A stretch of 25,890 nt of DNA, taken from a virus. Below, in pieces: positions 3,801 through 25,890 of the stretch. Where the stretch lies: the UHGV virus genome UHGV-0135394. One strand, written 5' to 3'. Position numbers and translations under genes: made by a program. The notes under the pieces were generated by a model. The model saw nothing but the letters and a program-made list of their open reading frames with translations. It did no database searches and was not told the origin of the DNA. Each line of letters starts with the position of its first letter. Within the stretch, counting starts at the first letter, position 1.

Positions 3801-3810
3801 TGATTACCCC

Positions 3811-4503: not shown

Positions 4504-4505
4504 GG

Positions 4506-9294: not shown

Positions 9295-10205
9295 TATCGA
9301 ATTCCTTTATTCAGTTGCGCCTTGAGCTTGCGGTATGTCTCTACATCCCCTTTGTTTGCTGCCGCTTCCATCTGCTTTTCAATCGCAGAGATATTTGCAG
9401 CAACAGCGTGTCCCTGAATTGGTTCATCAGGTAACGGGGCTTCTGAAACAGGCTTGGCTCGAGGCTTGAGAGTTAAACGTTCTGACAGTCGAGTGAGTTC
9501 AATCAGCGCGGATTGCCCGTCCATCGCCAGCAACTGGCGTGTTTTCTCAGGATTAGCACCAAGGTGATACATGAGAGCGGCGGATTTCTCCGGGAAGAGG
9601 CGCATGATGTCGGCACCGACTGATGGCGGCACCAGTTGCATGAATGCATCCTCTTTCTCCTGATAGTCAGGGATATTGAGCTTTTCCGCTGCGTCGTAGT
9701 GCTTACGGGCTGCCTCGACGTATTGCGCTGATTGCTGGGTGAACTCCTGAGTTTTGCGACCCTGCTCGGCTACAGCCTGGCTTCGTGCGTCCATAGCCTT
9801 GATCTGCCATTCACTGTTTGCCTGCTGGAAGGCAGCCAGTGCGCGGCTCTGGTCATAGTCGTACTTAGCCAGTGCATCTTCGGAAAGATAATCGTTAGGG
9901 TCTGGTTGTTTTGGTAACTCAGGGTTCACCCGCAGGTGCTCCGGCAACTCTCCACGCTTAACCGCTTCCATCTGCTGCTCAAGCTCACGCTGTCGTTTGC
10001 GTTCGATGCGGCGACGGGCAAATTCAGCATTAGTTGCCGGGTCTTGTTTTGGTTTCTCATCGTCTTTCAGGACAATCTCGAAGCCTTCTTCCTGACCTGC
10101 GTTGTCGTTGGCATTATCGACAACTAAGCCATCAGCAGATGCCGCTGCATGATTGCCGGGCAGGGTTAATTCTTCAGAAGCCTGAATGTCGGTGGTTTGG
10201 TCCAT
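9294..10205 (-). CDS. Scaffolding protein, P22 gp8-like (303 aa)
   Basis: Strong similarity to recalled P22 gp8, including conserved C-terminal coat-binding region ...[11 protein letters not shown]. Confidence 0.92.
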
Positions 10206-10218
10206 GATTAACTCTCTC

Positions 10219-12384
10219 TTATTGAGGTGTCTCGGCTACTCCGCCGGAGGGGATTTGAACTTGACGCATAAGATTCGCGAAATCCATGCGTTGTGAATGA
10301 GTCTGGTCTGCATCTTTAAGAAGCAGCTCAGCGTTAGCACGAGCATCTTTGCTGCGCTGTTGCTGGAATTGACCTACGAGCTTGAGGTACTCACGCAGTT
10401 CTGCCTGCTTGTCGAGGTCCATATTGTTGAAGATTTCTGCAATCTTCGCGGCGTTGAGTTGGTTTTGAGCTTCAACCTTGGCAGCTTCAACCTGAATCTG
10501 CGCCTGTTGGTTCTCTGCCTTGAGCAATTCAGCCTGACCTTGCAGAAGGATACCCTGCGCCTGAATTTGCTCTGCTGATGGCTGCTGCGGCTGCTGTTGC
10601 GCCTGTTGTACCATCTCCATCTCTTCAGGTGTTTCTGGTTTCTTCAGCCCCATCATCACCAGTTGCTTGTTCGCGTACTCTCGCATCATCTCGACGCCTT
10701 TACCGTCAAGCAGAGTGAAGTATTGCAGCATCAGCATCTGGAACTCTGGAGTACCTTGCGGAACCTTGGTGAGTAACTCCTGAATCTCTGCGCGGTTCTG
10801 TTCCTTCATGCTCTGGAAGGATGGCCCAACGTCCGTATAGCACTCATAGCGACCACGAATGTCGTTGAGTGTGACCACATTGCCGGACTGGTAATCGACA
10901 ACTTGCGCATAGAGTTGAACGTCTTTCTCGCTACCATCTTCAAGTGTCAGCGTTACATGACGAGGAACGTCATAAATATCATTGACCATTGATGCATAAA
11001 TCTCGCCATCGCGTCGCATTGCGGTAGCCAGGTTATCCTGAAACACGTATGTCTCAAGGTCTGCCCGCATGTTCAGTTGATTGACGGTATCGAAAGCGAC
11101 CTGACCGTTTGCTGCCTGCGCATCCACGCCAAGACTAGCCACCTCTTTCACTGCGTTGGTGGCAGCCTCAAGCATGTAAGCGTTGGCCTGCGGTACTTCA
11201 GGGTTTTCCATGTAAGAGATTGGACCAATCGGCAGGTCGTTACCGTTTTCATCGTTCTTGTTCTGCAGATAGTACGGATAGTCATCATTTCCACCGTACA
11301 TGTATTCGTAGCCTTCGATTTGCTCAGGGAAGAAGGTCGGTTTCTTCTTCGGTGAACGAGCAACAATATCGGCGTTGAATGACATGATCATGTTACGAAG
11401 GCGCTGACCGTCTTTCGTCAGCCTTACCACTCCTTCGTAGCACTCCTTGTCACCAGCGAATGACCATTCGCCATACACTGGAACGATTGGAATATGCTCT
11501 CCGGCTATCTTCTCGCGGTCTTTCAGTATCTGCGTGCAGGTGATGATCGACTTATACACACGCCGACGCTTCACCTTGCGCTCTGCTACCTTAATGAATC
11601 CACGATTAGCCAGGTCGTCGATGACGTCTTTGATATCCTGCTGGTAATAGCTGACCGGCTCACCTGTCAGCGGGTCGCGGTAGATGAAGACTTTCTCTTT
11701 CTTCTCTTCTACCTCGTAATACTCAGCAACGTAGACGACATCATTCGATACCCACGGAAACAGCCATGTATCGTTTGGATTCTGGAAAGATGGCAAGGTG
11801 TCAGGATCAATACCGTAATCCTCTGCGAACTCTTTCCAGCCATTGCGCGACAAGGCGTTAATCACCGTGCAGTGCTTAGCGTCGCTCTTATCCATCTGCT
11901 TGCTGTTGGCGTCCCATATGACGTGTGAGCAGGCTTCATGGATTGGAAGGCGTCGGATTACCTGATTGTTGCTTGTTGGGTCGTTGTCTTCGTACTGGGT
12001 GACCAGACGCCATGCACCAACGCCGGACTCTATCTGCTCACGAACTCCAACGTTAACGGCAATCTTTGCCGTGTTATGGCGCATATCAGTACGATACATT
12101 CCCATCAACACATCGGCAGCATCAGGATTAGCGCCGTCTTTGGGTCGGAAGAGAACGTCGATAGGGTTCCGGCGCATCTCTGCGACCAGTTTCCTGACCA
12201 CCGGGCGAACAACATCGAATTGTCCGCGATATTGCAGAGTCGTGTAGTTTGATAGCCAGTCATCCCATTGCGACACTCGGCTAAAATACAGGTCATTTGT
12301 CGCCTCGGTTCTGGCTTCATCGCTCGCCATCCAGTCCGCGTCAAACTTACACAGAATGGAATTGAGTCTGTTTTCGTCGGCCAT
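10219..12384 (-). CDS. Portal protein, P22 gp1-like (721 aa)
   Basis: Full-length similarity to recalled P22 portal, including Gln-rich C-terminal barrel region ending SGGVAETPQ. Confidence 0.95.
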
Positions 12385-13884
12385 TTAAGTTCTCCGTGCG
12401 ATGGGCCTGATTGGGGCTGGTATCTTTTTCTCTTTTGGTTTTTTGATGTCGCGCATCATTTTGGAGAAGCGGCGCATCATGTATGCATAGCGAACGGCTG
12501 AGAGAACGTCGTCGTTAAGCTTGACGATCTTCCCGTTTTCATCACGGTGATAGAGGCGAAACTCCTCAAAGAATGGTTCACAGGTGTTGAATACCTTGAA
12601 GCGACCATCTAGCATCATGTCGCGCAATTCAGTGATTCCAGGCTCAACAGCATTACCGCCATCAGGCCATGTCGCATGCTCCTGCAACATCATAAATCCA
12701 GCGTCTGCATACTGCCCTTTGAGCTGCTCACCGCCGCCCTTCTCATGCTGGTTTCCGTCATGAGGCCATGCGGTTGGCACTTTATGCGCCCATGATTTAA
12801 CAGCTCCCCATGCCTGAACAGCTGTTTTTTCTTTCGCCTTCCACACGCGTGAAACGTAGATTGTGTCTGCGTCCTTATCCCACCAAAGCTGAACCTGCGC
12901 CTGTGGGTGATCCCATCCGAAATCCATCCCACCAATTACGTAGAAGTGATCAGGACACTCGAACGGCTGACACTTAATCGTCTCTTCCGGTATCTGGAAG
13001 ATTCGACCACTACCCATCGTAGGAATACCGCGAGCACGCGCCTCTCTCTCATGCTCGGGATAGGATGCGATGATTTGCTCTTTCTGCTCGTCGGTGTAGT
13101 GCTCAGCGTCGTAGATGGTCATGTTGACAACTTTCTGCGACTTGCTGGGATTCTTCAGGAACTTGGTAACAACGTCAGACATCCCCATCAGCGGGGTAAA
13201 CGTCAGAATTGAGAATTGCCCGTATTTGTTGGTACGGGTAAGACCTTCGCCATAAATGCTGTATGGTGGTTCTTCGTCAAACCACACGCCGTGGATTGTG
13301 TCACCCTGCCAGCGAGCGCGGCCTTGCGAGTATGGTTTGAAGTAGCAGATTGAAATGCCATCTTCAACGCCATCAGCCGTGTGATGCTTAACCAGAAGAT
13401 GATCAACAAGGTTCGGAAAGAAAGGAGACTTCTTCCAGCTAATGATGTCCTCTTTCGGTATGGAACCGTAGCCAGGCTCATCATTCTCTTCGATACGACC
13501 GCACAGGATGCGTTGAGTCGTTTTGGTTACAGTCTCGTTTGTCTCGCCGCCAATCCAGAAGACAACAGGCTCATAGAAACGCTTACCTTTCCACTCCCCA
13601 CCATATTTACCATCAGCAGGATAGCCTTTTGTGCCCGGATAACGCCCTGTAAGGTGAAACGCGACTTCAGCAGCACCAGTAAATGACTTACCAAGCTGGT
13701 TACCAGCCATAAAACATCGCTCTGGATAGTCATGTCCGGCGTCGATGAACTCACGCTGTTTGCTGTATGGCGTAAATTCATATAGCAGGTGAGTGTTCCG
13801 GTAGTTCTCTTCTTCTTCGAGTAGCTCGAGCAATTCGATTTGCTCTTCGTCGCTCAAGTTATCAAGAATCGCGTCCAGTTCCAC
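12385..13884 (-). CDS. Terminase large subunit, P22 gp2-like (499 aa)
   Basis: N-terminus [37 protein letters not shown] and length match recalled P22 gp2; Walker-type GNQLGKS motif. Confidence 0.95.
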
Positions 13885-14356
13885 GGTTGAATAGCTCCTT
13901 GATACGAGAGCGTCGCTTATCGCGATCTCCCTTATCAGGTGTCACGTCTTCAACTTGCGACTGCTCTTTGAGGCCCAAATCACGGGCGATGATATTAGCG
14001 TTGAGAAGGTCAGCGGCTGCGCCAGAGAATTTCTGGTCGTAGATGACCTGCTCTGCTCGCGTAACGACTTCAGATAAATCTTCTCGCAGGCGATATGTGC
14101 GCCATGTTTCAAGCGTCACATCAATGAACAGAGTGAGGCCGGTAATGGTCATCGCTCGCATCTTGGCGATAGGCTCTTGTATCACTTCACCCTGATACGA
14201 GAACGCCTTCATCTCCCATAGCGGGTTAGCTTCAACCCACTCGAAGTATTCACAACAAGCAGCCCACAGCGCCTCGGGCGATTCGAATTTAGGGTTTCGC
14301 CCATGACTACTGCGGGCCTCCCAAAATCGGTTGCCCTTTGGTGCTGCCATATTCAT
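13862..14356 (-). CDS. Terminase small subunit, P22 gp3-like; true start probably the third codon (ATG at 14348..14350)
   Basis: [38 protein letters not shown] matches recalled P22 gp3; expected to contain the pac site for headful packaging. Confidence 0.9.
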
Positions 14357-14373: not shown

Positions 14374-14553
14374 TCAGGCTGAGGACTCTTTCGCGCCTTC
14401 AATCAGTGACTGCTTCAGCAATTCGAGTGTGCCAATCGCCTCGCATAAACTGATTTCACCATCGTAATCATGGATGGCGCTTTCCATCCGCTCGTATAGC
14501 TCTTGAGTAATTGGGAATTTCTTCTCCTTACCCAAATTGATTACGCGGCTCAC
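14374..14553 (-). CDS. Possible small ORF (59 aa, GTG start) upstream of small terminase
   Basis: Open frame found by manual reading of the minus strand; below the 60-aa ORF-track cutoff; no strong SD identified. Confidence 0.25.
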   Translation of the reverse strand: MSRVINLGKEKKFPITQELYERMESAIHDYDGEISLCEAIGTLELLKQSLIEGAKESSA

Positions 14554-14554
14554 A

Positions 14555-14797
14555 TCATGCTCCGGTGGTGAACAGGTCTAACGCTTCCTTCGATTTACGC
14601 ACCGCTTCGATAGTGCGGGTCGTGATATCTGAATTAGCGCCGCCTGACTGGAAGTGAATTTTGAATAGCTCAAGCTTCAGCTCGTCAGTGCCAATGAATT
14701 GAAATGCTTCTTCTGCGGCTGCGTTCTGGTTCATGACCAGTTTGTAAATCTCTAACTGGAATTTCTGTTCTTCAGTCATGGGAATAATCTCTGCCAT
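14555..14797 (-). CDS. Hypothetical phage protein (80 aa)
   Basis: ORF in the lysis-to-terminase accessory cluster, same strand as the late genes. Confidence 0.5.
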   Translation of the reverse strand: MAEIIPMTEEQKFQLEIYKLVMNQNAAAEEAFQFIGTDELKLELFKIHFQSGGANSDITTRTIEAVRKSKEALDLFTTGA

Positions 14798-14812
14798 TGT
14801 TGGCTCCGTTTA

Positions 14813-14844
14813 TCCGTTAAAAGGGATATCAGTTAAGTTATCCC
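14813..14844 (-). terminator. Possible weak intrinsic terminator
   Basis: Minus-strand hairpin GGGAUA-10 nt loop-UAUCCC (plus 14823..14844) followed by CUUUUAA. Confidence 0.3.
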
Positions 14845-14900
14845 GTGTAGGGTATAAGCCATTATCAAAGCCACTCTGTAGGGAATGGCTTTTGTAATAA

Positions 14901-15272
14901 CTACTGTTCGCTTAGCTTCTGCTTCAGCAAGTAACCTTCCAGCATCCAGATTTTATTCACCGCATTTTCGCGGGCGATCTTGCGACCGATCTCCGGGTCG
15001 AAGTTTTCCGGGCTGGCGCAGGCGCTTTCGCCGGTGACGGTGAAGCCGTTGCGCAGCACCAGGACGCAGAATGTAAGAAGCTTTAATGCTTCCTGACTTT
15101 CGGTTAAATCAAGCGCGGATTTGTATGTCGCCATAGCGCCCTCTCCGCCAATACCATCGTATGCGGTGAAGCAATGCTCGCTTTTAATCACGTCTTCGAT
15201 GTGCTGAGGAGTGATTCGCGGGGCTGTTTTGCCTTTCTCAACGATTTCTTTTTCGATTTGCTGGTCGTTCAT
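14901..15272 (-). CDS. Conserved phage protein (123 aa), possibly N4 gp49 / Sf6 gp66 family
   Basis: ORF in the accessory cluster; family assignment is from recollection only. Confidence 0.5.
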   Translation of the reverse strand: MNDQQIEKEIVEKGKTAPRITPQHIEDVIKSEHCFTAYDGIGGEGAMATYKSALDLTESQEALKLLTFCVLVLRNGFTVTGESACASPENFDPEIGRKIARENAVNKIWMLEGYLLKQKLSEQ

Positions 15273-15348
15273 AATTATGACCTTGTTGGTTGTTAAAGAT
15301 GTTTTTGTGATGGCGATAAAAAGGCCGCCTGAGCGACCTGTTAGTTGT

Positions 15349-15537
15349 TCACAACTTCCATTGTTGAAGGTTCAGCATGTCGAAAAATGATCCGCATTTG
15401 GGGGGATTTTCCATTCTTGCCCTCTCTTCAGCCGCTTTGTAATAAGCCATTGGCCTTTTCACACCATCAGTACCAGTGATGTATTCAACGCCTTCCTTCT
15501 GGTCTTTGTTTACGGAAACCATCGCAACATCTTCCAC
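15349..15537 (-). CDS. Hypothetical small protein (62 aa)
   Basis: ORF in accessory cluster; flanked by about 200-bp non-coding gaps. Confidence 0.4.
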   Translation of the reverse strand: MEDVAMVSVNKDQKEGVEYITGTDGVKRPMAYYKAAEERARMENPPKCGSFFDMLNLQQWKL

Positions 15538-15751
15538 TTGTTCGTTATCGATTCAGCGGATGTCTTTCCATCAGTCCGCCACCACAAAGAATCTTTTTTG
15601 CCTTAAGGCAGGAGCTTCATCTTTCAGTGGCTGCCAGTGTTATTTCCCCACTTACTGGCTTGGGTTGTTTCGTGGTACTGCCGTTAACTGGTGGCCCAGA
15701 ATAAATTCCGGTTTCATTATCAAGCCCACCCGTAAATGGGCTTTGTAATGG

Positions 15752-16015
15752 CTACTTCACTTTTGCTTTTGCTTCCGCTCGCTTACGCCGGCGCTCTTCT
15801 TTCCTCTCGGCTTTTGCCATGTCCATGAATGCCTGCATGATCGAGTTCCGCATCATGTAGCTAACAAAGTGATGATTGACACAGCCGTTGAGGCGCAGCT
15901 GCTCGCCAAACTCATCCACCGAGGCCAATGCTTCCATCATGCCCTTCTCGCCTTTCATGAACTCTGAGAAGTCGCGCCCCGCTCTGGAGGCGCATTCAAT
16001 GACACGATCACTCAT
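15752..16015 (-). CDS. Hypothetical protein (87 aa) with Lys/Arg/Glu-rich C-terminus
   Basis: ATGA-type start overlap with upstream KilA-N gene stop suggests translational coupling. Confidence 0.5.
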   Translation of the reverse strand: MSDRVIECASRAGRDFSEFMKGEKGMMEALASVDEFGEQLRLNGCVNHHFVSYMMRNSIMQAFMDMAKAERKEERRRKRAEAKAKVK

Positions 16016-16509
16016 CCCGGAAGCCCGGGGATCGTAATCTGCAGCTGGTTAGCCAGGGAGTTAATCTCAGCGACCAACACTGGCTTCGTATAGCGCCATG
16101 CTGCCAGCCCTTGTCCGCAGAAGCTCGCCATGTCTTTCTTCTGGTCAAACTCATGACATTTCATGTTGAGCTGCGCACTTAAGCTGTTGCGATGCTGAAG
16201 TTCTCCGGTGAAGTAGTCATCGAGGACTTTATAGGCCGCGTACTTGAACCCGGGGTTTAACCAAGCCGCATAATCGTAAGCAACAAACTTCCCGCCATAT
16301 GTTCCACCGTGTACACCGCGCTCAGTAAAAACCACAGATTCGTGGTTTTTCTCCAGCTCGGCTAAGAACTCTTTGGTCTGCTTGTTTCGCAGATAGTGGT
16401 ACGGCGATTCAGATTCACTTTTACCACTAGCTTTCCACATGTCAGTGAGGCAGATCATGCCATCTTCACCGATACGAATTGGTTGATTGAAGAGGGTTAA
16501 TGATTTCAT
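16012..16509 (-). CDS. KilA-N domain protein (165 aa)
   Basis: N-terminal region ...GMICLTDMWKASGKSESESPYHYLRNKQTKEFL resembles KilA-N/APSES-type DNA-binding domains common in phage accessory regions. Confidence 0.6.
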   Translation of the reverse strand: MKSLTLFNQPIRIGEDGMICLTDMWKASGKSESESPYHYLRNKQTKEFLAELEKNHESVVFTERGVHGGTYGGKFVAYDYAAWLNPGFKYAAYKVLDDYFTGELQHRNSLSAQLNMKCHEFDQKKDMASFCGQGLAAWRYTKPVLVAEINSLANQLQITIPGLPG

Positions 16510-16710: not shown

Positions 16711-17169
16711 TTATTTCAGGCATTGCGTCCTGATGTATTCCTGCAGGTAGTTAACCTGCGCGGTTATCTTGTCGATTCCACTTCGGAGACGGTAATAATT
16801 GAGTTCAGCATCTGCTGTAAGTCCTGGGCTTTCTCCATCGCCCATGCCGCTGGCTCCGGTCGTTGACTTTGCACAGGTGGCGGCGACTTGCAGGCGCTTA
16901 CGCCCAGCAGAAACATCAGCACGGAGACTTTCGATAGTCGCGTTAGCATCAGCAAGCTCCTTTGTGTATCTTGCGTCGAGTTCTGCTACATCACGTTGAC
17001 GCTTCCGCATGTCAGCGATGGTGGCGTTCGCCTTCTCCAGTTCACTGGCCTTGTTATCGCGCTGCTCTTTGTAGGCGATTGCGTTATCACGGTAATGATT
17101 AACAGCCCATGACAGGCAGACGATGATGCAGATAATCAGAGCGGGGATAATCGCGGTTACTCTGCTCAT
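16711..17169 (-). CDS. Rz: Spanin inner-membrane subunit Rz (152 aa)
   Basis: N-terminal TM helix plus coiled-coil periplasmic domain; close to recalled lambda Rz; follows R with 4-nt overlap. Confidence 0.9.
16764..16955 (-). CDS. Rz1: Spanin outer-membrane lipoprotein Rz1, embedded in the +1 frame of Rz
   Basis: Embedded ORF with lipobox-like ...LLGVSAC and Pro-rich mature region; exact start within the ORF uncertain. Confidence 0.8.
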
Positions 17170-17642
17170 ACCTCAATCTCTCTGACCGTTCCGCCCGCTT
17201 CTTTGAATTTTGCAATCAGGCTGTCAGCCTTATGCTCGAACTGACCATAACCAGCGCCCGGCAGTGAAGCCCAGATATTGCTGCAACGGTCGATAGCCTG
17301 ACGAATATCACCGCGATCAATCATCGGTAAAGCGCCACGCTCTTTAATCTGCTGCAATGCCACTGCGTCCTGGCTTTTGGGAGAGAAGTCTTTCAGGCCA
17401 AGCTGCTTGCGATAGGCATCCCACCAACGGGAAAGAAGTTGGTAACGTCCGGCTGCTGTTGATTTGAGTTTTGGGTTTAGCGTGACAAGTTTGCGAGGGT
17501 GATCGGAGTAATCAGTGAATAGCTCTCCGCCTACAATGACGTCATAACCATGATTTCTGGTTTTCTGCCGTCCGTTATCAGTTCCCTCTGACCACGCCAG
17601 CATATCGAGGAACGCCTTACGTTGATTATTGATTTCCACCAT
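17166..17642 (-). CDS. R: Endolysin, lambda R-type lytic transglycosylase (158 aa)
   Basis: Near-identity to recalled lambda R ([35 protein letters not shown]...). Confidence 0.95.
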
Positions 17643-17949
17643 CTTCTACTCCGGCTTTTTTAGCAGCGAAGCGTTTGATAAGCGAACCAATCGAGTCAGT
17701 ACCGATGTAGCCGATGAACACGCTCGTTATATAAGCGAGATTGCTACTTAGTCCGGCGAAGTCGAGAAGGTCACGAATGAACCAGGCGATAATGGCGCAC
17801 ATCGTTGCGTCGATTACTGTTTTTGTAAACGCACCGCCATTATATCTGCCGCGAAGGTACGCCATTGCAAACGCAAGGATTGCCCCGATGCCTTGTTCCT
17901 TTGCCGCGAGAATGGCGGCTAACAGGTCATGTTTTTCTGGCATCTTCAT
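17626..17949 (-). CDS. S: Class I holin, lambda S-type (107 aa) with dual-start motif
   Basis: Near-identity to recalled lambda S; Met1-Lys2-Met3 dual start (antiholin S107 / holin S105). Confidence 0.95.
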
Positions 17950-18342: not shown

Positions 18343-18406
18343 GATATAAAAAATCCCGAAACCGTTATGCAGGCTCTAACTATTACCTGCGAACTGTTTC
18401 GGGATT
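18343..18406 (-). terminator. tR'-like intrinsic terminator of the late leader transcript
   Basis: Long imperfect hairpin (UCCCGAAAC...GUUUCGGGA) followed by UUUUUUAU on the minus strand; matches recalled lambda tR'. Confidence 0.8.
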
Positions 18407-18540
18407 GCATTTTGCAGACCTCTCAGCCTGCGATGGTTGGAGTTCCAGACGATACGTCGAAGTGACCAACTAGGCGGAATCGGTAGTAAGCGCCGCCTCT
18501 TTTCATCTCACTACCACAACGAGCGAATTAACCCATCGTT
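18345..18540 (-). ncRNA. Lambda 6S-like short late leader RNA (pR' to tR')
   Basis: About 196 nt between the predicted pR' start site and tR', matching the roughly 194-nt lambda 6S RNA; sequence close to recalled lambda. Confidence 0.5.
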
Positions 18541-18546
18541 GGGTCA

Positions 18547-18575
18547 AATTTACCCAACTTTATTCAAAAAGTCAA
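18547..18575 (-). promoter_or_regulatory. Late promoter pR' with overlapping Q-utilisation (qut) region
   Basis: Minus strand -35 TTGACT (plus 18570..18575), 17-bp spacer, -10 TAAATT (plus 18547..18552), as in lambda pR', directly downstream of Q. Confidence 0.8.
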
Positions 18576-18617: not shown

Positions 18618-19241
18618 CTAACGTGTGACCGCATTCAAAATGTTGTCTGCGATTGACTCTTCTTTGTGGCATTGCACCACCAGAGCGTCATACAGCGGCT
18701 TAACAGTGCGTGACCAGGTGGGTTGAGTAAGGTTTGGGATTAGCATCGTTACAGCGCGATATGCGGCGCTTGCTGGCATTCTTGAATAGCCGACACCTTT
18801 GCATCTTCCGCACTCTTTCTCAACAACTCTCCCCCACTGCTCTGTTTTGGCTATATCAACCGCACGGCCTGTACCGTGGCAATCTCTGCATCTTGCGCCC
18901 GGCGTCGCGGCACTACGGCAATAATCCGCATAAGCGAATGTTGCGAGCACTTGCAGTACCTTTGCCTTAGTATTTCCTTCAAGCTTTGCCACACCACGGT
19001 ATTTCCCCGATACCTTGTGTGCAAATTGCATCAGATAGTTGATAGCCTTTTGTTTGTCGTTCTGGCTGAGTTCGTGCTTACCACAGAATGCAGCCATTCC
19101 GAATCCGGCTTGTGATTGCGCCATCCCCATAGCAGCCATCACATCAGTACCGGAAAGAGAGTCAGAAGCCGTAGCCCGTGGTGAGTCGCTCATCATCGGG
19201 CTTTTTGGCGAATGAAATTTAGCTACGCTTTCGAGCCTCAT
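18618..19241 (-). CDS. Q: Late-gene antiterminator Q, lambda-type (207 aa)
   Basis: Essentially identical to recalled lambda Q, including Cys-rich zinc-binding region CRDCHGTG...CGRCKG. Confidence 0.95.
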   Translation of the reverse strand: MRLESVAKFHSPKSPMMSDSPRATASDSLSGTDVMAAMGMAQSQAGFGMAAFCGKHELSQNDKQKAINYLMQFAHKVSGKYRGVAKLEGNTKAKVLQVLATFAYADYCRSAATPGARCRDCHGTGRAVDIAKTEQWGRVVEKECGRCKGVGYSRMPASAAYRAVTMLIPNLTQPTWSRTVKPLYDALVVQCHKEESIADNILNAVTR

Positions 19242-19426
19242 GGCCTTCCCCTTTTGCCCTGTTTGACCATCAGGACGCCGTTAACTATTACGTGACGCTC
19301 GCCTTTGCTGTCTCGGTTGTACTTGAGCACTGTTCCTCTTGCGCAGGAAAGCATCCTCGCCACTTCGGTCTGATTGCCTCGTGTCTGGATAAGAAGCTCT
19401 GGTATCGTTTGAATTGTGGCGTTCAT
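19238..19426 (-). CDS. ninH: NinH-like protein (62 aa)
   Basis: ...GNQTEVAR...CSRGTV...IVN.VLMV matches recalled lambda NinH; ATGA overlap with Q start. Confidence 0.75.
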   Translation of the reverse strand: MNATIQTIPELLIQTRGNQTEVARMLSCARGTVLKYNRDSKGERHVIVNGVLMVKQGKRGRP

Positions 19427-19785
19427 ACGTTCTCCAGTTCGGTGATTTTTATTCCAAGCCTTCCGCCTGGTACTTTCACACCACGAATTACGCGAATGTC
19501 ATCGAATTGCTCGTCGTCTTCCGCAAATCCGGCGTGGATAAGGGAGTCGAGTAAACCTTTCAGGATGTTGTCGAGGTCGCGGCGGCGGGAGTCTGGAACG
19601 TCTGCGATGACTTTGATGCGGAGTCGTGATTTGGTGAAAATGTCTAACTTGAGTTGGCGGATTATTTGCTGTACATCTTCTCGGTATTTCTGGCCTTTAT
19701 CGCTGATGTAGTATTGGCTTCCCCTTCTTCGCCAGTAGGTATTCAGCGACGGTGGGTACGGAAGCACAAACTGATATTCGTTCAT
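19423..19785 (-). CDS. rusA: Holliday-junction resolvase RusA family (120 aa)
   Basis: Length and motifs (LP.PPS.N.Y...RRRDLDN...GGRL.I.I.E) match RusA; ATGA overlap with ninH. Confidence 0.85.
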   Translation of the reverse strand: MNEYQFVLPYPPSLNTYWRRRGSQYYISDKGQKYREDVQQIIRQLKLDIFTKSRLRIKVIADVPDSRRRDLDNILKGLLDSLIHAGFAEDDEQFDDIRVIRGVKVPGGRLGIKITELENV

Positions 19786-20072
19786 GACTTAATCTTCCCC
19801 TCCTTCAGCAGTATCACCTGCGTCCTGATCACGCCTTCGAGGTGGTAAAGTCTGGCGTCTTTGTTGTCGATATTATGGGTGCGTCGGTCGATTTCATCGT
19901 GACACGCGCTACAAGCCCATGCGCCGATCAGGTCGTCAGGCTTCATTCCCGTTCCGCAAATTCCAGCCATCCGGTAATGTGCCAGAACTGTAGTTTCAGG
20001 GTTGCCATTGCATACGCCGTAAATACGTACCTGACATTCTCTGCCGCGCGCTTCTTTGCGTAGATTAGCCAT
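19782..20072 (-). CDS. ybcO: YbcO-like nin-region protein, putative Cys-rich nuclease (96 aa)
   Basis: MA.LRK.ARGRECQVRI.GVCNGNPET.VLAH...CSACHDEIDRRTH matches recalled DLP12 YbcO; GGGGAGG SD 9 nt upstream; ATGA overlap with rusA. Confidence 0.8.
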   Translation of the reverse strand: MANLRKEARGRECQVRIYGVCNGNPETTVLAHYRMAGICGTGMKPDDLIGAWACSACHDEIDRRTHNIDNKDARLYHLEGVIRTQVILLKEGKIKS

Positions 20073-20392
20073 TAAGCAGCCTCCCCGGTTACTTTCAGCA
20101 TTCCGTTATCGAGCAGCTTTCTGGTCAGCCACTGTTGACCACGCCCGGTGATTTTTGTGGTGAACGATATCTGTATTCCGTGATTTGTGTTGACCGCTGT
20201 TTCTTTCACGGTGAAATAGGCGCGATCACTTTCGTCTACTCCGTTACAAAGCGAGGCTGGGTATTTCCCGGCCTTCCTGTTATCCGAAATCCTCTGAAAG
20301 CACAGCGGCTGGCTGAGGAGATAAATAATAAACGAGGGGCTGTATGCACAAAGCATCTCCTGTTGAGTTAAGAACGAGCATTGAGATGGCAC
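20072..20392 (-). CDS. Hypothetical; probably only the 3' part is a real (possibly 5'-truncated) nin-region gene
   Basis: C-terminal ~60 codons look coding and the stop is coupled (TAATG) to the ybcO-like start; N-terminal ~45 codons are low-complexity and overlap the divergent plus-strand gene by 49 bp. Confidence 0.3.
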   Translation of the reverse strand: MPSQCSFLTQQEMLCAYSPSFIIYLLSQPLCFQRISDNRKAGKYPASLCNGVDESDRAYFTVKETAVNTNHGIQISFTTKITGRGQQWLTRKLLDNGMLKVTGEAA

Positions 20393-20535
20393 ATAGCCTT
20401 GCTCAAATTGGAGTCAAGTTTGTGCCAATACCAGTAGAAACAGACGAAGAATTTCATACGTTAGCCGCATCCCTTTCACAAAAGCTGGAAATGATGGTGG
20501 CGAAAGCAGAAGCAGATGAGAGAGACCAGGTATGA
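20344..20535 (+). CDS. Small early-operon protein (63 aa), acidic
   Basis: SD GAGGGG 5 nt upstream of ATG; first gene of a plus-strand operon pointing toward int; stop overlaps next start (ATGA). Confidence 0.55.
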   Translation: MHKASPVELRTSIEMAHSLAQIGVKFVPIPVETDEEFHTLAASLSQKLEMMVAKAEADERDQV

Positions 20536-20615
20536 CAACCACGGAATGCATTTTTCTGGCAGCGGGCTTCATATTTTGTGTGCTTATGCTTGCCGACATG
20601 GGACTTGTTCAATGA
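20532..20615 (+). CDS. Candidate 27-aa hydrophobic micro-protein (MTTTECIFLAAGFIFCVLMLADMGLVQ)
   Basis: Found by manual reading; ATGA overlaps at both ends couple it to the genes on either side; single predicted TM helix; below ORF-track cutoff. Confidence 0.35.
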   Translation: MTTTECIFLAAGFIFCVLMLADMGLVQ

Positions 20616-20827
20616 CACCTCAGCAAGAAAACGCCCTTCGCAGCATTGCCCGTCTGGCTAACTCTGAAATCAAAAAAGCCAGACAGCAGTTTCCGGATAA
20701 AAACGTCGATGACATTTGCCGTAGCGTACTGAAGAAGCACCGCGAAACGGTAACGCTGATGGGATTCACACCGACTCATTTAAGCCAGGCGATCGGCATG
20801 TTAAACGGCGTCTTTAAGGAGCGATGA
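20612..20827 (+). CDS. Small early-operon protein (71 aa); start at internal Met of the 103-aa ORF
   Basis: ATG at 20612 is translationally coupled to the preceding micro-ORF; the upstream part of the ORF-track frame overlaps two other genes. Confidence 0.55.
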   Translation: MTPQQENALRSIARLANSEIKKARQQFPDKNVDDICRSVLKKHRETVTLMGFTPTHLSQAIGMLNGVFKER

Positions 20828-20848
20828 ACATGAAGAGCAAAATCATCA

Positions 20849-20873
20849 GGGAGCTACAGGCTCCTTTTTTATT
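20849..20873 (+). terminator. Short GC hairpin plus U6 tract inside the early operon (attenuator or sRNA 3' end candidate)
   Basis: GGAGC-UACAG-GCUCC (20850..20864) followed by UUUUUUAUU (20865..20873). Confidence 0.4.
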
Positions 20874-20925
20874 GTTCGCATTCACCCTCAAGCGTATTAA
20901 CCAACAATTCAGGGATTAATGGAAG

Positions 20926-21147
20926 ATGGCAGACATCATTGATTCAGCATCAGAAATTGAAGAATTACAGCGCAACACAGCAATAAAAATGCGCCGCCTG
21001 AACCACCAGGCTATATCTGCCACTCATTGTTGTGAGTGTGGCGATCCCATAGATGAACGAAGACGCCTGGTCGTTCAGGGTTGTCGGACTTGTGCAAGTT
21101 GCCAGGAGGATCTGGAGCTTATCAGTAAACAGAGAGGTTCGAAGTGA
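20926..21147 (+). CDS. C4 zinc-finger protein, TraR/DksA-like (73 aa)
   Basis: CCECGDPI...(16 residues)...CRTCASC four-cysteine motif near C-terminus; SD-like GGAAG upstream. Confidence 0.6.
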   Translation: MADIIDSASEIEELQRNTAIKMRRLNHQAISATHCCECGDPIDERRRLVVQGCRTCASCQEDLELISKQRGSK

Positions 21148-21560
21148 GCGAAATTAACTCTCAGGCACTGCGTGAGGCGGCAGTAGCAATTGAAACAGTA
21201 GCAACGCCTCAAAAATTGCTGGCATTTCGTATGAAAGTCACACCTCAGGTTGTGCTGGCACTGCTGGATGAACGGGAAAGAAACCAGCAATACATCAAAC
21301 GCCGCGACCAAGAGAACGAGGATATTGCGTTAACGGTAGGGAAGTTGCGCGTTGAGCTTGAGGCAGAAAAACAGCGGGCAAAGGATCTGTTTATGGAAAA
21401 TGCTCGGCTTAAGTCAGGTATAGCCGGTCTGATACACCTCGGTATTCGATATGCAGATGTTGAGGTCATGAGAATTGCTGGAGATGCCCAGCTTTCTACC
21501 CCATGCACTGACAGCATCATAAACAGCATTGCAACAGGCATTCGCATCAAAGGAGAGTGA
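21144..21560 (+). CDS. Ea22-like early-region protein (138 aa), GTG start
   Basis: Motif LLDERERNQQYIKRRDQENEDIALTVGKLRVELE is characteristic of lambdoid Ea22-family proteins; SD AGAGAGG 6 nt upstream; start overlaps previous stop. Confidence 0.7.
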   Translation: MSEINSQALREAAVAIETVATPQKLLAFRMKVTPQVVLALLDERERNQQYIKRRDQENEDIALTVGKLRVELEAEKQRAKDLFMENARLKSGIAGLIHLGIRYADVEVMRIAGDAQLSTPCTDSIINSIATGIRIKGE

Positions 21561-21561
21561 T

Positions 21562-22230
21562 ATGAGCGCTATAACCAAAGAACGTATCAAATTATTCATT
21601 AAAAATCCGCTTGATAACGGACTTACTCGTGGCGAACAAATGGAACTGGCACGAATTGCACTGGCATCACTGGAACGCGAACAGATTCGCCACGAGCATG
21701 CCAAATGGTCTGACTCCACATTTGGCTGCGTTGGCCCCATTGGTCCGCTGAAACATCTCTCAAAAGAGGCACTGGAAGCCGCAGCCGAACCAGACGATCT
21801 TAGCGAGTGGGCTGATATGCAGTTTCTGTTGTGGGATGCACAGCGCCGTGCTGGCATCAGCGATGCTGAAATTACCGCTGCTATGGAAGATAAATTGAAG
21901 ATCAACATGGAGCGCCAGTGGCCTGAGCCAAAAGATGGTGAGCCTCGCTTGCACATTAAAGAACCCGGCAACTATCCGGTAACTCCGGATGGTTGGATAA
22001 GCTGTAGTGAGCGAATGCCAGAAATGGGAGAGCGACAATGCTATGTGTTAGCAGCTGACTTTAAAAACAACTACCCACCAAACATCCCCAACACTCAGGT
22101 CGGCGTATATGGCGACTGGTTTAATGATGGCAATCCAACTTGGGATGACGGTGATGGCGAAGACCTGTATCTCAAAGAGGTAACCCACTGGATGCCTCTA
22201 CCAGAACCGCCTCGATTAAAGGAGCTATAA
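21562..22230 (+). CDS. DUF551-type early-region protein (222 aa); start at internal ATG with SD
   Basis: C-terminal ...VTHWMPLPEPP signature of DUF551 domains common in lambdoid ea regions; SD AGGAGA at 21551..21556. Confidence 0.7.
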   Translation: MSAITKERIKLFIKNPLDNGLTRGEQMELARIALASLEREQIRHEHAKWSDSTFGCVGPIGPLKHLSKEALEAAAEPDDLSEWADMQFLLWDAQRRAGISDAEITAAMEDKLKINMERQWPEPKDGEPRLHIKEPGNYPVTPDGWISCSERMPEMGERQCYVLAADFKNNYPPNIPNTQVGVYGDWFNDGNPTWDDGDGEDLYLKEVTHWMPLPEPPRLKEL

Positions 22231-22344
22231 TAGTGAACTATTATATCTATTTGTATTAAAAGAGTTTTTATAAAATAAATCTTCCAAAGCATGTAAAAAC
22301 ACTGTTAATCTTAACGTGTGTGAAACGTGAAGAGAGGTGTTGAA

Positions 22345-22626
22345 ATGAGCATTCATGATTTGTGTGAAGATCAAGAGCAATGGGCTATGCAGACCCTTAT
22401 GGGATCAGGAGTTCTTGCAAGGTGCAGAATCCATAACGATGTAATTTTAGACAGCGGAAATGATGCTTCTTCTGCTTATAAATTAGGAACTTACCTATAT
22501 CAAAAAGATAATAGCTGCAACTTATTCAATACTCTTACTGAAGCCCGCGACGCAATAAAGGATGCATATGAATCGTATTGTGGGATTGATGATTGCCCAC
22601 AATGCTCAAAATACATTGACGATTAA
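22345..22626 (+). CDS. Hypothetical Cys-containing moron protein (93 aa) in AT-rich island
   Basis: SD AGAGAGG 7 nt upstream of ATG 22345; region 22230..22900 is visibly AT-rich relative to flanks; followed by hairpin terminator(s). Confidence 0.55.
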   Translation: MSIHDLCEDQEQWAMQTLMGSGVLARCRIHNDVILDSGNDASSAYKLGTYLYQKDNSCNLFNTLTEARDAIKDAYESYCGIDDCPQCSKYIDD

Positions 22627-22646
22627 TAATATGAACAAGTAACTAT

Positions 22647-22700
22647 CCTCGCACTCGCGGGGATTTCTTTTATCTGAACTCGCTACGGCGAGTTTTGTTT
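22647..22700 (+). terminator. Two tandem hairpins with U-tracts after the 93-aa moron gene
   Basis: CCUCGC-ACUC-GCGGGG + AUUUCUUUUAU (22647..22673) and GAACUCGC-UACG-GCGAGUUU + UGUUUUAU (22676..22702). Confidence 0.45.
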
Positions 22701-22714
22701 TATGGAGATGATAA

Positions 22715-22882
22715 ATGCACTTCCGAGTCACAGGTGAATGGAATGGAGAGCCATTCAACAGAGTTATCGAAGCAGAGAACATCAATGACTGCTATGACCA
22801 CTGGATGCTATGGGCGCAGATAGCACATGCAGACATAACCAATATTCGAATTGAAGAACTGAAAGAACACCAAGCCGCCTGA
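22715..22882 (+). CDS. Hypothetical small protein (55 aa)
   Basis: GGAG SD 7 nt upstream of ATG; stop lies inside a terminator hairpin; below ORF-track cutoff, found by manual reading. Confidence 0.45.
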   Translation: MHFRVTGEWNGEPFNRVIEAENINDCYDHWMLWAQIAHADITNIRIEELKEHQAA

Positions 22883-22897
22883 TGGCGGTTTATTTTT
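22874..22897 (+). terminator. Intrinsic terminator between moron cassette and alpA-like gene
   Basis: GCCGCC-UGAU-GGCGGU stem-loop followed by UUAUUUUU. Confidence 0.5.
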
Positions 22898-22912
22898 GCC
22901 TGGAGAATTAAG

Positions 22913-23104
22913 ATGACCGATACCAGCCTGATTCCTGAGAAAGAAGTGATGAACAAGCTCGGTGTTTCATCACGTCAGACAATCTGGAACTATACCAAAC
23001 GGCACGGATTTCCGAAGCCAGTCAGAACCCACCCCAAATCATACCTTCGTGAAGCTGTTGAAGGGTGGATTCTTAACGGTGGCGTTAATCAGAAATGCTC
23101 CTGA
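22913..23104 (+). CDS. AlpA/excisionase-family HTH protein (63 aa)
   Basis: Short HTH-like protein adjacent to a P4-type integrase; 3' end overlaps the integrase 3' end by 20 bp on the opposite strand. Confidence 0.7.
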   Translation: MTDTSLIPEKEVMNKLGVSSRQTIWNYTKRHGFPKPVRTHPKSYLREAVEGWILNGGVNQKCS

Positions 23105-24263
23105 TGTGCCAGAACAATTTATCAGCGTGAAGCTCATACGCTTTGCGCTGAGCCTCTATCCAGTCGTGTTTATTGTATACGGACATTATCCCGCCAAGTT
23201 CATGACCGAGCATTCGCTCAGTAACATGAGGCTCGACATTCATCTCGGACAGACGTGTAACAAGCGTTCTTCTGAAATCATGTGTTCGCCAGTAACCCAG
23301 ATCCATCCCTCCCCTTATTCGATTTACGAATCGGTTGGCTGCAGCGATGCTGATCGGTTTGTTTATGTCTTCTCCAGGGAAAAGAACATCATTGTACGTT
23401 GTCATGGCCTTTTCGAGGAAAGGCTTAATTTGTTCGAAGATTGGACGGCGGATAACATTACCCATCTTGCTATGCTCTTTCGGTACGGTCCATACGTTGT
23501 CCAGCAGGTCAAACTCTGTCTTTGTTGCCAGCCTAAGCTCTGAGAGCCTCGCCCCCCACAGCATAAGCATCTGATGAAGGAGCTTATTTGACGTAGACGC
23601 ACGGCTTCTTTCAATAGCAAGCCAAATCTTAGCCAGTTCGTGATACGACAGTACCCGATCCCCTACCTCAGCGCGGGAGCCGAAGTCCCTTGGTTGGATG
23701 CTCATAATTGCGCAACTATCTATCAACTGACGCCGCATGCACCAACTTATTGCTGATCTTAGTTGACTTAGCACCTGCCTTGCTCGGCGTGGATTATCTC
23801 TTTCTTCTTCGGTAAGCAGGTCAACCCATTGCTTAACCGTGATAGAAGATGCCGGACGATTAGGAAAGGCGTCATGCATGCGCTTCATAACCGTTGATCG
23901 GTAAAGTGCCTGGGTCTTTTCTCTGAGAGTTGTAGAGACGTAGTTGTCGAACCAGTAGTCGAGACACTGGGCGACCGTCATGGAGTTCTCCACCTTCTCT
24001 TCAAAATAAGTGCGTGGATCCGTTCCTGAGAAATAGAGCTTTCGCAAGTCAGCAGTGATCTGTCTGGCATCCTTCAAAGACAGGGATGGGTATCGACCAA
24101 GCCCAAGTCGATTAGGCTTGCCATGCCAGCGATAGCGGTACTGGAACTGGATGACCCCCTTCGGTGAAATTCGTACGCTGAGGCCATCGGCATCAGCCAC
24201 TTCTTGTGGGCCAGAATATGGTTTACCATAAATAGTACGCAGTTTTGTGTCGCTTATAGCCAT
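23085..24263 (-). CDS. int: Tyrosine site-specific integrase, P4-type with N-terminal arm-binding domain (392 aa)
   Basis: N-terminal DUF4102-like domain (...GLSVRISPKGVIQFQYRYRWHGKPNRLGLGRYPSLSLKDAR); catalytic signature HDFRRT ... LGHELGG ... SVY near C-terminus; located at the prophage-host junction. Confidence 0.92.
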   Translation of the reverse strand: MAISDTKLRTIYGKPYSGPQEVADADGLSVRISPKGVIQFQYRYRWHGKPNRLGLGRYPSLSLKDARQITADLRKLYFSGTDPRTYFEEKVENSMTVAQCLDYWFDNYVSTTLREKTQALYRSTVMKRMHDAFPNRPASSITVKQWVDLLTEEERDNPRRARQVLSQLRSAISWCMRRQLIDSCAIMSIQPRDFGSRAEVGDRVLSYHELAKIWLAIERSRASTSNKLLHQMLMLWGARLSELRLATKTEFDLLDNVWTVPKEHSKMGNVIRRPIFEQIKPFLEKAMTTYNDVLFPGEDINKPISIAAANRFVNRIRGGMDLGYWRTHDFRRTLVTRLSEMNVEPHVTERMLGHELGGIMSVYNKHDWIEAQRKAYELHADKLFWHIRSISD

Positions 24264-24444: not shown

Positions 24445-25890
24445 ATGACAGGCACAGATAAACAACCTACCTTCCTCTTTCACGATTACGAAACCTTTGG
24501 CACGCACCCCGCGTTAGATCGCCCTGCACAGTTCGCAGCCATTCGCACCGATGACGAATTCAATGTCATCGGCGAACCCGAAGTCTTTTACTGCAAGCCC
24601 GCGGATGACTATTTACCCCAGCCTGGAGCAGTATTAATTACCGGTATTACCCCGCAGGAGGCACGAGCGAAAGGAGAAAACGAAGCCGCGTTTGCCGCCC
24701 GTATTCACTCGCTTTTTACCGTACCGAAGACCTGTATTCTGGGCTACAACAATGTGCGTTTCGACGACGAAGTCACACGCAACGTTTTTTATCGTAATTT
24801 CTACGATCCTTACGCCTGGAGCTGGCAGCATGATAACTCGCGCTGGGATTTACTGGATGTTATGCGTGCCTGTTATGCCCTGCGCCCGGAAGGAATAAAT
24901 TGGCCTGAAAATGATGACGGTCTACCGAGCTTTCGCCTTGAGCATTTAACCAAAGCGAATGGTATTGAACATAGCAACGCCCACGATGCGATGGCTGATG
25001 TGTACGCCACTATTGCGATGGCAAAACTGGTAAAAACGCGTCAGCCACGCCTGTTTGATTATCTCTTTACCCATCGTAATAAACACAAACTAATGGCGTT
25101 GATTGATGTTCCTCAGATGAAACCCCTGGTTCACGTTTCCGGAATGTTTGGGGCATGGCGCGGCAATACAAGCTGGGTGGCACCGCTGGCGTGGCATCCT
25201 GAAAATCGCAATGCCGTAATTATGGTGGATTTGGCAGGAGACATTTCGCCATTACTGGAGCTGGATAGCGACACATTGCGCGAGCGTTTATATACCGCAA
25301 AAGCCGATCTTGGCGATAACGCCGCCGTTCCGGTTAAGCTGGTACATATCAATAAATGTCCGGTACTGGCCCAGGCGAATACGCTACGCCCGGAAGATGC
25401 CGACCGACTGGGAATTAATCGTCAGCATTGCCTCGATAACCTAAAAATTCTGCGTGAAAATCCGCAAGTGCGTGAAAAAGTGGTAGCGATATTCGTGGAA
25501 GCCGAACCGTTTACACCTTCAGATAATGTGGATGCACAGCTTTATAACGGCTTTTTCAGTGACGCCGATCGTGCAGCAATGAAAATTGTGCTGGAAACCG
25601 AGCCGCGTAATTTACCGGCACTGGATATCACTTTTGTTGATAAACGAATTGAAAAGCTGTTGTTCAATTATCGGGCGCGCAACTTCCCGGGGACGCTGGA
25701 TTATGCCGAGCAGCAACGCTGGCTGGAGCACCGCCGCCAGGTCTTCACGCCAGAGTTTTTACAAGGCTATGCAGAAGAGATTCAGATGCTGGCGCAGCAG
25801 TATGCCGACGATAAAGAAAAAGTGGCGCTGTTAAAAGCGCTTTGGCAGTACGCGGACAAAAGCAGCACTGGCAGAAATGGCCAGCGGCGA
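24445..25890 (+). CDS. sbcB: Exodeoxyribonuclease I (3'-to-5' ssDNA exonuclease), 3'-partial at window end
   Basis: Translation from ATG 24445 (MTGTDKQPTFLFHDYETFGTHPALDRPAQFAAIRTD...) is near-identical to enterobacterial ExoI over about 470 residues; ORF runs to the window end without a stop. Confidence 0.93.
   Translation, partial: MTGTDKQPTFLFHDYETFGTHPALDRPAQFAAIRTDDEFNVIGEPEVFYCKPADDYLPQPGAVLITGITPQEARAKGENEAAFAARIHSLFTVPKTCILGYNNVRFDDEVTRNVFYRNFYDPYAWSWQHDNSRWDLLDVMRACYALRPEGINWPENDDGLPSFRLEHLTKANGIEHSNAHDAMADVYATIAMAKLVKTRQPRLFDYLFTHRNKHKLMALIDVPQMKPLVHVSGMFGAWRGNTSWVAPLAWHPENRNAVIMVDLAGDISPLLELDSDTLRERLYTAKADLGDNAAVPVKLVHINKCPVLAQANTLRPEDADRLGINRQHCLDNLKILRENPQVREKVVAIFVEAEPFTPSDNVDAQLYNGFFSDADRAAMKIVLETEPRNLPALDITFVDKRIEKLLFNYRARNFPGTLDYAEQQRWLEHRRQVFTPEFLQGYAEEIQMLAQQYADDKEKVALLKALWQYADKSSTGRNGQRR

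Follow-up and report, generated by a model that had tools for sequence, protein, structure and literature searches.

In Kapi1, in phage E212 and in the prophage located at sbcB in Escherichia coli MS14385, the nin genes, Q and the lysis genes are followed by gp3, gp2, the portal, scaffold and coat genes, and gp4, gp10, gp26, gp14, gp7, gp20 and gp16. The same order is found in the prophage carried by the virus genome UHGV-0135394, a stretch of 25,890 nucleotides (referred to as the window), which is a whole metagenome contig (ENA ERZ1745231 NODE_241, k-mer coverage 4.13). The proteins encoded in the window are mostly 95-100% identical to those of one of these three relatives, two of which (E212 and MS14385) also have the same integrase and the same attachment (att) site in sbcB. 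The element is a P22-like (Lederbergvirus) prophage of E. coli with lambda-type Q/lysis and pL-distal modules, inserted in the 5′ end of sbcB. In contrast to the window, all three relatives have immC, N, O/P or helicase genes, ninB-F, a complete KilAC gene and a recombination module.

Phage lambda shares two segments with the window: Q-pR′-6S/tR′-S-R-Rz (window positions 16900-19252 and lambda positions 43873-46235; 95% identity) and orf60a-orf63-orf61-ea22 (window positions 20217-21371 and lambda positions 30168-31323; 94% identity). However, the head, packaging and ejection genes of the window are of the P22 type, the integrase and att site are different, and everything that lies in lambda between approximately position 31323 and the nin region is lost.

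The results presented below indicate that the element is probably a recent, inert defective prophage generated by a single deletion of approximately 10-12 kb, i.e. an ordinary remnant and not a domesticated gene-transfer device.

Probable deletion junction and missing early region

The late and the int-proximal parts of the window meet at the following features:

20072..20227, minus strand: 3′ remnant of the KilAC antirepressor gene of the nin region (last 51 codons), a pseudogene
20217..20227: predicted deletion junction, an imperfect 11-bp microhomology TAGGCGCGATC common to both parental contexts (TAG[G/C]CGCGATC)
20213..20371, plus strand: orf60a/DUF1317, 5′-truncated, with the start codon deleted

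The junction was located by comparison with relatives, as the original prediction of this element had proposed. The references for the left-hand parent (the P22-like nin regions of Kapi1, E212 and MS14385) match the window up to position 20227, and those for the right-hand parent (the pL-distal regions of loci L024, L023 and L018, phage 1717 and lambda) match it from position 20217. The window and the right-hand references share the version TAGGCGCGATC of the motif, whereas all three left-hand references have TAGCCGCGATC.

Both breakpoints are intragenic, one being placed in the KilAC antirepressor gene and the other in orf60a. The KilAC remnant covers only positions 66-106 of the 108 positions of the Pfam ANT profile and corresponds (tblastn) to residues 190-240 of the 240-amino-acid (aa) protein of Kapi1 and to residues 191-241 of the 241-aa protein of MS14385. 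The orf60a remnant represents residues 9-60, with 94-96% identity to the DUF1317 protein of L024 and to lambda orf60a (tblastn); in lambda, the right breakpoint falls at coordinate 31323, 25 bp beyond the stop codon of exo.

Apart from the internal deletion, the element is collinear with its intact relatives, and a truncated gene is present at each breakpoint. Collinearity and truncated breakpoint genes are the features that characterize defective lambdoid prophages formed by deletion, and the window shows both of them. The sequence comparisons argue that this architecture arose in a single step, by illegitimate deletion of about 10-12 kb at a microhomology, and that the element should be classified as a defective lambdoid prophage formed by deletion, not as a gene transfer agent (GTA) or a satellite.

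Two other origins of the junction were considered and rejected. An alternative phage architecture, or modular exchange at gene boundaries, was ruled out by the intragenic breakpoints at the microhomology. Unlike in three other prophages of this locus (L003, L005 and L006), no insertion sequence (IS) was found at the junction, which rules out an IS-mediated deletion.

In order to characterize the region between the nin genes and the host boundary, every open reading frame (ORF) in 20072-24263 was subjected to Pfam and PHROG scans. These revealed the KilAC remnant, DUF1382, phrog_303, a DksA-type protein, Ead/Ea22, a pyrophosphohydrolase with DUF551, ea8.5, phrog_676, an AlpA/excisionase (Xis)-like protein and the integrase, and no repressor or replication initiator. 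In addition, the whole window was searched (tblastn) with 49 reference proteins (early, immI and tailspike) taken from six phages and prophages related to the element. The set comprised five cI types, cro, cII, several N types, O, P, DnaB-type helicases, exo/bet/gam, Rad52, SSB, NinB/E/F, Arc, Ant and tailspikes, and the sole real match was to the C-terminal 51 residues of the nin antirepressor. A NinF match of 20 residues (E = 0.004) falls inside int and was discarded as noise.

The lambdoid early region (immC, an N-type antiterminator gene and replication genes between the pL operon and nin) is absent from the window, and the element is a defective derivative of the P22-like group and not a complete member of it. 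The small plus-strand genes and the integrase that occupy the rest of the region are as follows:

20344..22882, plus strand: distal pL-operon accessory genes, promoterless, assigned by Pfam/PHROG families (the next seven lines)
20344-20535, plus strand: orf63/DUF1382
20612-20827, plus strand: phrog_303 protein, 71 aa
20926-21147, plus strand: DksA-type zinc finger protein
21144-21560, plus strand: Ead/Ea22
21562-22230, plus strand: dATP/dGTP pyrophosphohydrolase-DUF551
22327-22626, plus strand: ea8.5-like
22715-22882, plus strand: phrog_676 protein, 55 aa
22913..23104, plus strand: AlpA/excisionase-like helix-turn-helix protein, 63 aa (weak Pfam AlpA/HTH_17 match; PHROG 66, "excisionase and transcriptional regulator")
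23085..24263, minus strand: intact tyrosine integrase, 392 aa (Pfam Arm-DNA-bind_3 and Phage_integrase)

The string of accessory genes in 20344..22882 was found in ten other prophages, where it stands beside their own cI, O and P or helicase genes, which argues that these genes are not substitutes for immunity or replication functions. The possibility, left open in the original prediction, that one of the small ORFs is a hidden repressor or replication initiator was rejected on the basis of the family scans and of these ten prophages, which pair the same ORFs with ordinary cI, O and P genes.

The same searches confirmed the predicted lack of cI/cro, N, recombination and O/P-type replication genes, and the interval between int and nin is indeed filled with small plus-strand accessory genes, which belong to the pL-distal set. 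This interval is short, as had been stated, although the value of about 4.2 kb given for it includes int; the distance from the 3′ end of int to the nin remnant is about 2.9 kb. What had been called the nin operon consists only of ybcO/DUF1364, rusA and ninH.

The sbcB prophage of MS14385 reveals what an intact member carries at this place. Between ybcO and the ea genes it has a complete KilAC antirepressor gene, ninF, ninE, a methylase gene, genes for a helicase and a replication protein, cII, cro, cI, N, cIII, kil and a recombination module. Intact relatives with the identical integrase at sbcB are approximately 10 kb longer than the element (best match 34.8 kb, compared with 24.6 kb of query). 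Judging from these relatives, the unseen left end should contain Arc/Mnt-type genes, Ant, small ORFs and the tailspike gene, and not immC or replication genes.

The proposed deletion, which starts midway through the antirepressor gene and ends shortly after exo, would have removed the ninF/E/B-type genes, the helicase or P gene, the O-type initiator gene together with the origin, cII, cro and pR/oR, and also cI, pL/oL, N, cIII, kil and gam-bet-exo. The simultaneous removal of cI, both early promoters and N would have made the event non-lethal since, judging from the biology of lambda and P22, the loss of the repressor is survivable when pR, pL and N are lost with it. The remaining element would no longer be SOS-inducible, nor would it replicate or provide immunity.

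Retained modules and their predicted state

The genes to the left of the junction, all of them on the minus strand except for the last one, comprise the following:

19782-20072, minus strand: ybcO/DUF1364 (Pfam YbcO)
19423-19785, minus strand: rusA (Pfam RusA)
19238-19426, minus strand: ninH (Pfam Phage_NinH)
18618..19241, minus strand: late antiterminator gene Q, lambda type (206/207 identical to lambda Q, 207/207 to Kapi1 Q)
18344..18575, minus strand: promoter pR′ (−35/−10 at 18575-18547), 6S-type leader and terminator tR′, which, from the lambda arrangement read against the sequence, we take to lie at ~18403-18344
16711..17949, minus strand: lysis cassette (Pfam Phage_holin_3_1 and Phage_lysis; the next four lines)
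17626-17949, minus strand: holin, 100% identical to Kapi1
17166-17642, minus strand: endolysin, 100% identical to Kapi1
16711-17169, minus strand: Rz
16764-16949, minus strand: Rz1 lipoprotein, embedded in Rz (lipobox LGVSAC in the translation)
14374..16509, minus strand: late-operon accessory ORFs, with Pfam families read on an identical JGI contig (the next five lines)
16012-16509, minus strand: KilA-N/ORF11CD3, 165 aa
15752-16015, minus strand: 87-aa ORF
14901-15272, minus strand: gp49_66, 123 aa
14555-14797, minus strand: DUF2560
14374-14553, minus strand: 59-aa ORF
13862..14356, minus strand: small terminase, P22 gp3 type (Pfam GP3_package)
12385-13884, minus strand: large terminase (Pfam Terminase_6N/6C)
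10219-12384, minus strand: portal (Pfam P22_portal)
9294-10205, minus strand: scaffold (Pfam Phage-scaffold)
7999-9294, minus strand: coat (Pfam P22_CoatProtein)
7228-7728, minus strand: gp4 (Pfam P22_Tail-4)
5809-7227, minus strand: gp10 (Pfam Phage_stabilise)
4961-5809, minus strand: gp26 needle (Pfam Phage_tail_NK)
4506-4961, minus strand: gp14 (Pfam DUF2824)
3811-4503, minus strand: gp7 (Pfam P22_gp7)
2451-3800, minus strand: gp20
343-2466, minus strand: gp16-like protein, 707 aa
119-346, plus strand: very hydrophobic 75-aa ORF

The Q, lysis, terminase, head and ejection ORFs are all full length when compared with those of Kapi1, E212 and the MS14385 prophage, and the twelve P22-type virion genes, from gp3 to gp16, stand in the canonical order. 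All genes of the window have a close and unambiguous homologue. Over positions 1-19242 the nucleotide identity to P22 is approximately 83%. The surviving nin genes (19238..20072) are full length and 97-100% identical to those of Kapi1, and the terminase, portal, scaffold and coat genes (7999..13884) are full length and 98.6-99.4% identical to those of the MS14385 prophage. Each gene of the ejection block (343..7728), whose families include Pfam Inj_translocase, gives a full-length match to a protein of E212, Kapi1 or MS14385. The lambda-type Q/pR′/tR′ switch, the lysis cassette and the P22-type packaging and head module are thus as intact as had been predicted.

The term "complete", which had also been applied to this machinery, goes too far, because the tailspike/immI region lies beyond the contig. 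In relatives this region comes after gp16, and no match to tailspike (gp9), Arc or Ant reference proteins was found in the window (tblastn), which ends before it. The visible element amounts to approximately 24.5 kb; with the 5-6 kb of tailspike/immI sequence expected from the relatives, its full length would be about 30 kb.

The promoter pR′ (TTGACT-17-TAAATT) lies directly downstream of Q. It was the only sigma-70-like site detected by a crude consensus scan of 17500-24600, compared with 9.9 +/- 3.1 such sites in shuffled sequence; promoter-like sites are markedly depleted across this early-region remnant. At the protein level, the late genes show 99-100% identity to active phages.

Judged by analogy with lambda, Q lacks pR and N and has no promoter of its own, so that pR′ would produce only a short transcript ending at tR′, and the lysis and virion genes would be silent. 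The perfect state of the late ORFs would then be due to recency and not to selection; their integrity is no evidence of host-specific upkeep, because a recent deletion leaves them intact anyway. The role of such a remnant would be passive: lambdoid phages entering the cell could acquire late-module alleles from it by recombination, or a co-resident phage that encodes a lambda-type Q could activate the late operon of the remnant in trans.

Several further observations concern this part of the window. The region between Q and the holin gene (17950-18617) is free of tRNA genes, in contrast to Kapi1, mEp506 and the MS14385 prophage, which carry tRNA-Asn and tRNA-Thr there; the window has the lambda pR′-6S-tR′ region in their place. 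A tRNA scan of the whole window found no tRNA gene, and an Rfam scan for regulatory RNAs gave no family at threshold. The accessory ORFs at 14901-16509, between the lysis and terminase genes, differ from those present at this place in Kapi1 and E212. The 75-aa ORF at 119-346, directly downstream of the gp16-like gene and on the opposite strand, may be a membrane moron or an exclusion gene; it has no family match, and phage E212 shares this DNA with 97% identity.

At the other end of the element, the boundary with the host chromosome is defined by two features:

24478..24490: 13-bp att core TTTCACGATTACG, the int-proximal prophage/host boundary, inside the 5′ end of sbcB
24445..25856, plus strand: host sbcB (exonuclease I), ORF from the ATG at 24445

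The core TTTCACGATTACG is the exact reverse complement of the 13-bp "duplication due to insertion" annotated in Stx2 phage 1717, and similarity to phage E212 stops at position 24490. The right end of the window is E. coli chromosome and everything to the left of the core is prophage, and sbcB is annotated at an equal offset from int in E. coli MS14385 and c1-17. The intact integrase gene adjoins the core, i.e. the feature required for site-specific integration is present. The AlpA/Xis-like gene overlaps the 3′ end of int convergently and is also present in the intact relatives. Prophages with this very integrase are extremely common, the identical protein being present in 1,895 index blocks and adjoining sbcB in all ten of the places listed.

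The sbcB frame opens 33 nt inside the prophage, which provides the upstream region and the first 11 codons (MTGTDKQPTFL); the gene is left intact by integration into its 5′ end. At the contig end, the stop codon of sbcB and the four codons before it are replaced by the final 34 nt (25857-25890), which match, in reverse complement, a tsuB/yeeD segment situated approximately 190 bp farther downstream on the E. coli chromosome. This stretch has the appearance of a fold-back chimeric tip or a small inversion.

Distribution of the junction and alternative explanations

A 281-bp probe across the junction was covered in none of 5,426 complete E. coli genomes. A degenerate 37-mer across the junction (CTTTCACGGTGAAATAGGCGCGATCACTTTCGTCTAC) was absent from GTDB (one genome per species) and from the scanned JGI metagenome set, the latter being a weak negative, as this set evidently does not include the known JGI carrier contig. 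In IMG/VR the 37-mer was found in a single contig (IMGVR_UViG_3300045988_015114). The 94-aa junction ORF forms a one-member cluster among approximately 15 billion proteins; with an ATG start it is on record from one contig, and with a GTG start it is not on record.

The JGI contig Ga0495776_154571 corresponds to positions 1-24263 of the window and is base-for-base identical over the 14.2 kb compared. The ENA and JGI/IMG-VR contigs share the exact first base and have different right ends (25890 and 24263, the latter being the integrase start codon). The shared left end suggests either that the same reads were assembled twice or that there is a common graph break at the variable immI/tailspike region, and the JGI contig may either come from a sample of its own or be a re-assembly of these reads. 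The junction is a singleton: its only known source is a single metagenome strain sequenced at low coverage.

Large deletions have arisen independently in other sbcB prophages with the identical integrase (L003 in strain c1-17, L005, L006 and L012). In c1-17, a truncated Q is separated from kil by IS1; in L005 and L006, the link between kil or pL-region genes and the tailspike gene or gp16 is formed by IS1; and in L012, cro is joined to Rz, which is followed by the portal gene. Decay by deletion is common at the sbcB locus.

Several points weigh against a recent and inert single-deletion derivative. The contig has a k-mer coverage of only approximately 4; the other contig that carries the junction is 100% identical to it from the same first base and may stem from the same reads; and the fold-back appearance of the last 34 nt indicates that this assembly does contain artefactual joins. 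The silence of Q and the late operon is deduced from lambda biology and the crude promoter scan, and the tailspike/immI end of the element lies off the contig. No strong terminator was detected between int and Q, and since int lies upstream on the same strand as Q, there may be weak read-through from int into Q.

The first three of these points also bear on the alternative that the junction is an assembly or library artefact, in which a chimeric read connected the nin and late genes of a P22-like prophage with int-proximal sequence from the same prophage or from another lambdoid one. With a coverage of 4.13, a junction found nowhere else, a sole other carrier that could be a re-assembly of the same reads, and an inverted tsuB copy at the contig end of a kind typical of chimeric tips, such an origin has to be weighed, all the more so as template switching also favors microhomology. 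Nevertheless, the two sides share only 3-11 bp, which is far below any assembler k-mer, and real reads must for this reason span the junction. Two assemblies with different right ends pass through it unbranched, which indicates that there is no competing intact path at similar coverage. Moreover, the join is collinear and in the right orientation for a simple internal deletion of one prophage, and phages that pair these late genes with this integrase, e.g. E212, do exist. We therefore consider an artefact unlikely.

The original prediction had interpreted the combination of intact late genes and missing replication genes as a GTA-like or helper-dependent element. That the prophage is defective and would depend on outside help to do anything follows from its missing modules, but neither of the two specific proposals is supported by the single deletion, the singleton junction and the retained int, Xis-like gene and att site.

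Under the helper-dependent proposal, a co-resident or superinfecting lambdoid phage would supply a lambda-type Q, and perhaps more, and the remnant would make P22-type particles or be mobilized itself. Its Q/qut/pR′ system is of a very common lambda type (with the near identity of Q to lambda Q noted above) and its late genes are intact. Interactions among defective lambdoid prophages of E. coli O157 were reportedly described by Asadulghani et al. in 2009. However, the O/helicase region, which carries ori in lambda and other lambdoid phages, is deleted, and a helper would for this reason be unable to replicate the element as a satellite; a non-replicating monomer is also a poor substrate for headful packaging. 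The hallmarks of satellites (an own replication module, a helper-sensing repressor and capsid-size redirection) are absent, and nothing points to a helper in the same cell. Finally, trans-activation would lyse the cell, with packaging mainly of the late half and host DNA and not of the element as a unit. A lambda-type Q could plausibly activate the remnant in trans, whereas mobilization of the element itself by a helper is unlikely, and as a whole we regard the helper-dependent proposal as very improbable.

A related and highly speculative idea, to which we attach hardly any credence, is that the deletion created a helper-triggered, replication-free lateral transducer. A 22-mer resembling the P22 pac site is present in gene 3 at 14062-14083 (2 mismatches; 0 such matches expected by chance), the pattern used being that of the P22 literature. 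A lambda-type Q supplied by any co-resident or infecting phage would fire the late operon, and the terminase would cut DNA at this pac-like site. If this were true, P22-type heads would fill with the late half and then with successive headfuls of chromosome from the dacD side of sbcB, resulting in a GTA-like transfer of a fixed chromosomal region without production of this phage.

The least credible alternative is a domesticated GTA-like element, i.e. a late module selected by the host that packages the chromosome by headfuls from the gene 3 pac without phage replication. The late genes look complete, they are not accompanied by replication or immunity genes, and the pac-like site is in place; integrated P22-type prophages with pac in gene 3 do perform headful packaging in situ into the neighboring host DNA (PMC8575938). 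Against this stand a singleton junction, and hence no vertical conservation, breakpoints that wreck two genes at random positions, a Q without a recognizable promoter or visible link to a host regulator, the retained integrase, Xis-like gene and att site, and late proteins so close to those of active phages that there is no signal of host-specific evolution. In addition, a P22-type headful of ~44 kb (PMC8575938), a capacity inferred here from homology, exceeds the ~30 kb element, and the inability to carry its own genes, a GTA hallmark, is not built in. The step to a GTA is unsupported because one deletion with intragenic breakpoints appears to have made the architecture and because the junction is unique to one strain.

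Comparison with described systems

GTAs such as RcGTA and BaGTA, and PBSX-type elements, are phage-derived structural and lysis clusters without self-replication, according to two accounts (PMC5026251, PMC6209664). GTAs are conserved across lineages and controlled by host regulators, their packaging of DNA is essentially random, and they are unable to carry their own set of genes. The window, in contrast, is a singleton with no visible regulatory input, with int and att kept and with a full-size P22-type head module. Lineage-wide vertical conservation was not found in the complete E. coli genomes, in GTDB or among the proteins searched, and of the replication, integration and excision functions whose loss is a GTA trait, replication is lost, but int, the Xis-like gene and the att site remain intact. 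The presence of intact late genes in an element that lacks replication genes should not be taken as a sign of domestication unless conservation is shown.

Satellites (P4-like elements, phage-inducible chromosomal islands (PICI) and capsid-forming PICI (cf-PICI)) have their own replication module, whereas none was found in the window by Pfam, PHROG and tblastn. They are also about 10-15 kb long with few virion genes, in contrast to the at least 24.5 kb and nearly full virion set of the present element.

Locked-in P22, Mud-P22 and P22 lateral transduction retain the repressor, early promoters and replication genes, and rely on in situ replication and normal induction. Compared with locked-in P22 and Mud-P22, the window has the pac-like site, but the genes for the trigger and for amplification are deleted.

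What is known here is a common type of prophage, of which the window carries a recent single-deletion derivative that opens no long-standing question. It does provide a caution, as a contig listed in IMG/VR as a viral genome appears to be a host-attached, deletion-crippled prophage. It also offers a likely snapshot of the first step of prophage decay, in which the repressor, both early promoters, N and the replication genes would have been lost at once. If the deletion is real, the strain holds a silent store of P22-type virion genes and of a lambda-type Q/lysis module.

The same category of defective prophage includes DLP12, Rac and Qin of E. coli K-12, in which immunity and replication functions were lost and int, nin/Q-type and lysis genes are left. 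These cryptic prophages are old and widely shared, and most of their virion genes are also lost. In strain c1-17, the prophage at this very locus (sbcB) lacks the functional block that is missing from the window, as a result of an IS1-mediated deletion that truncated Q. In contrast to both the K-12 cryptic prophages and c1-17, the deletion in the window is a singleton, free of IS and apparently mediated by microhomology, and it left Q and every visible virion gene intact.

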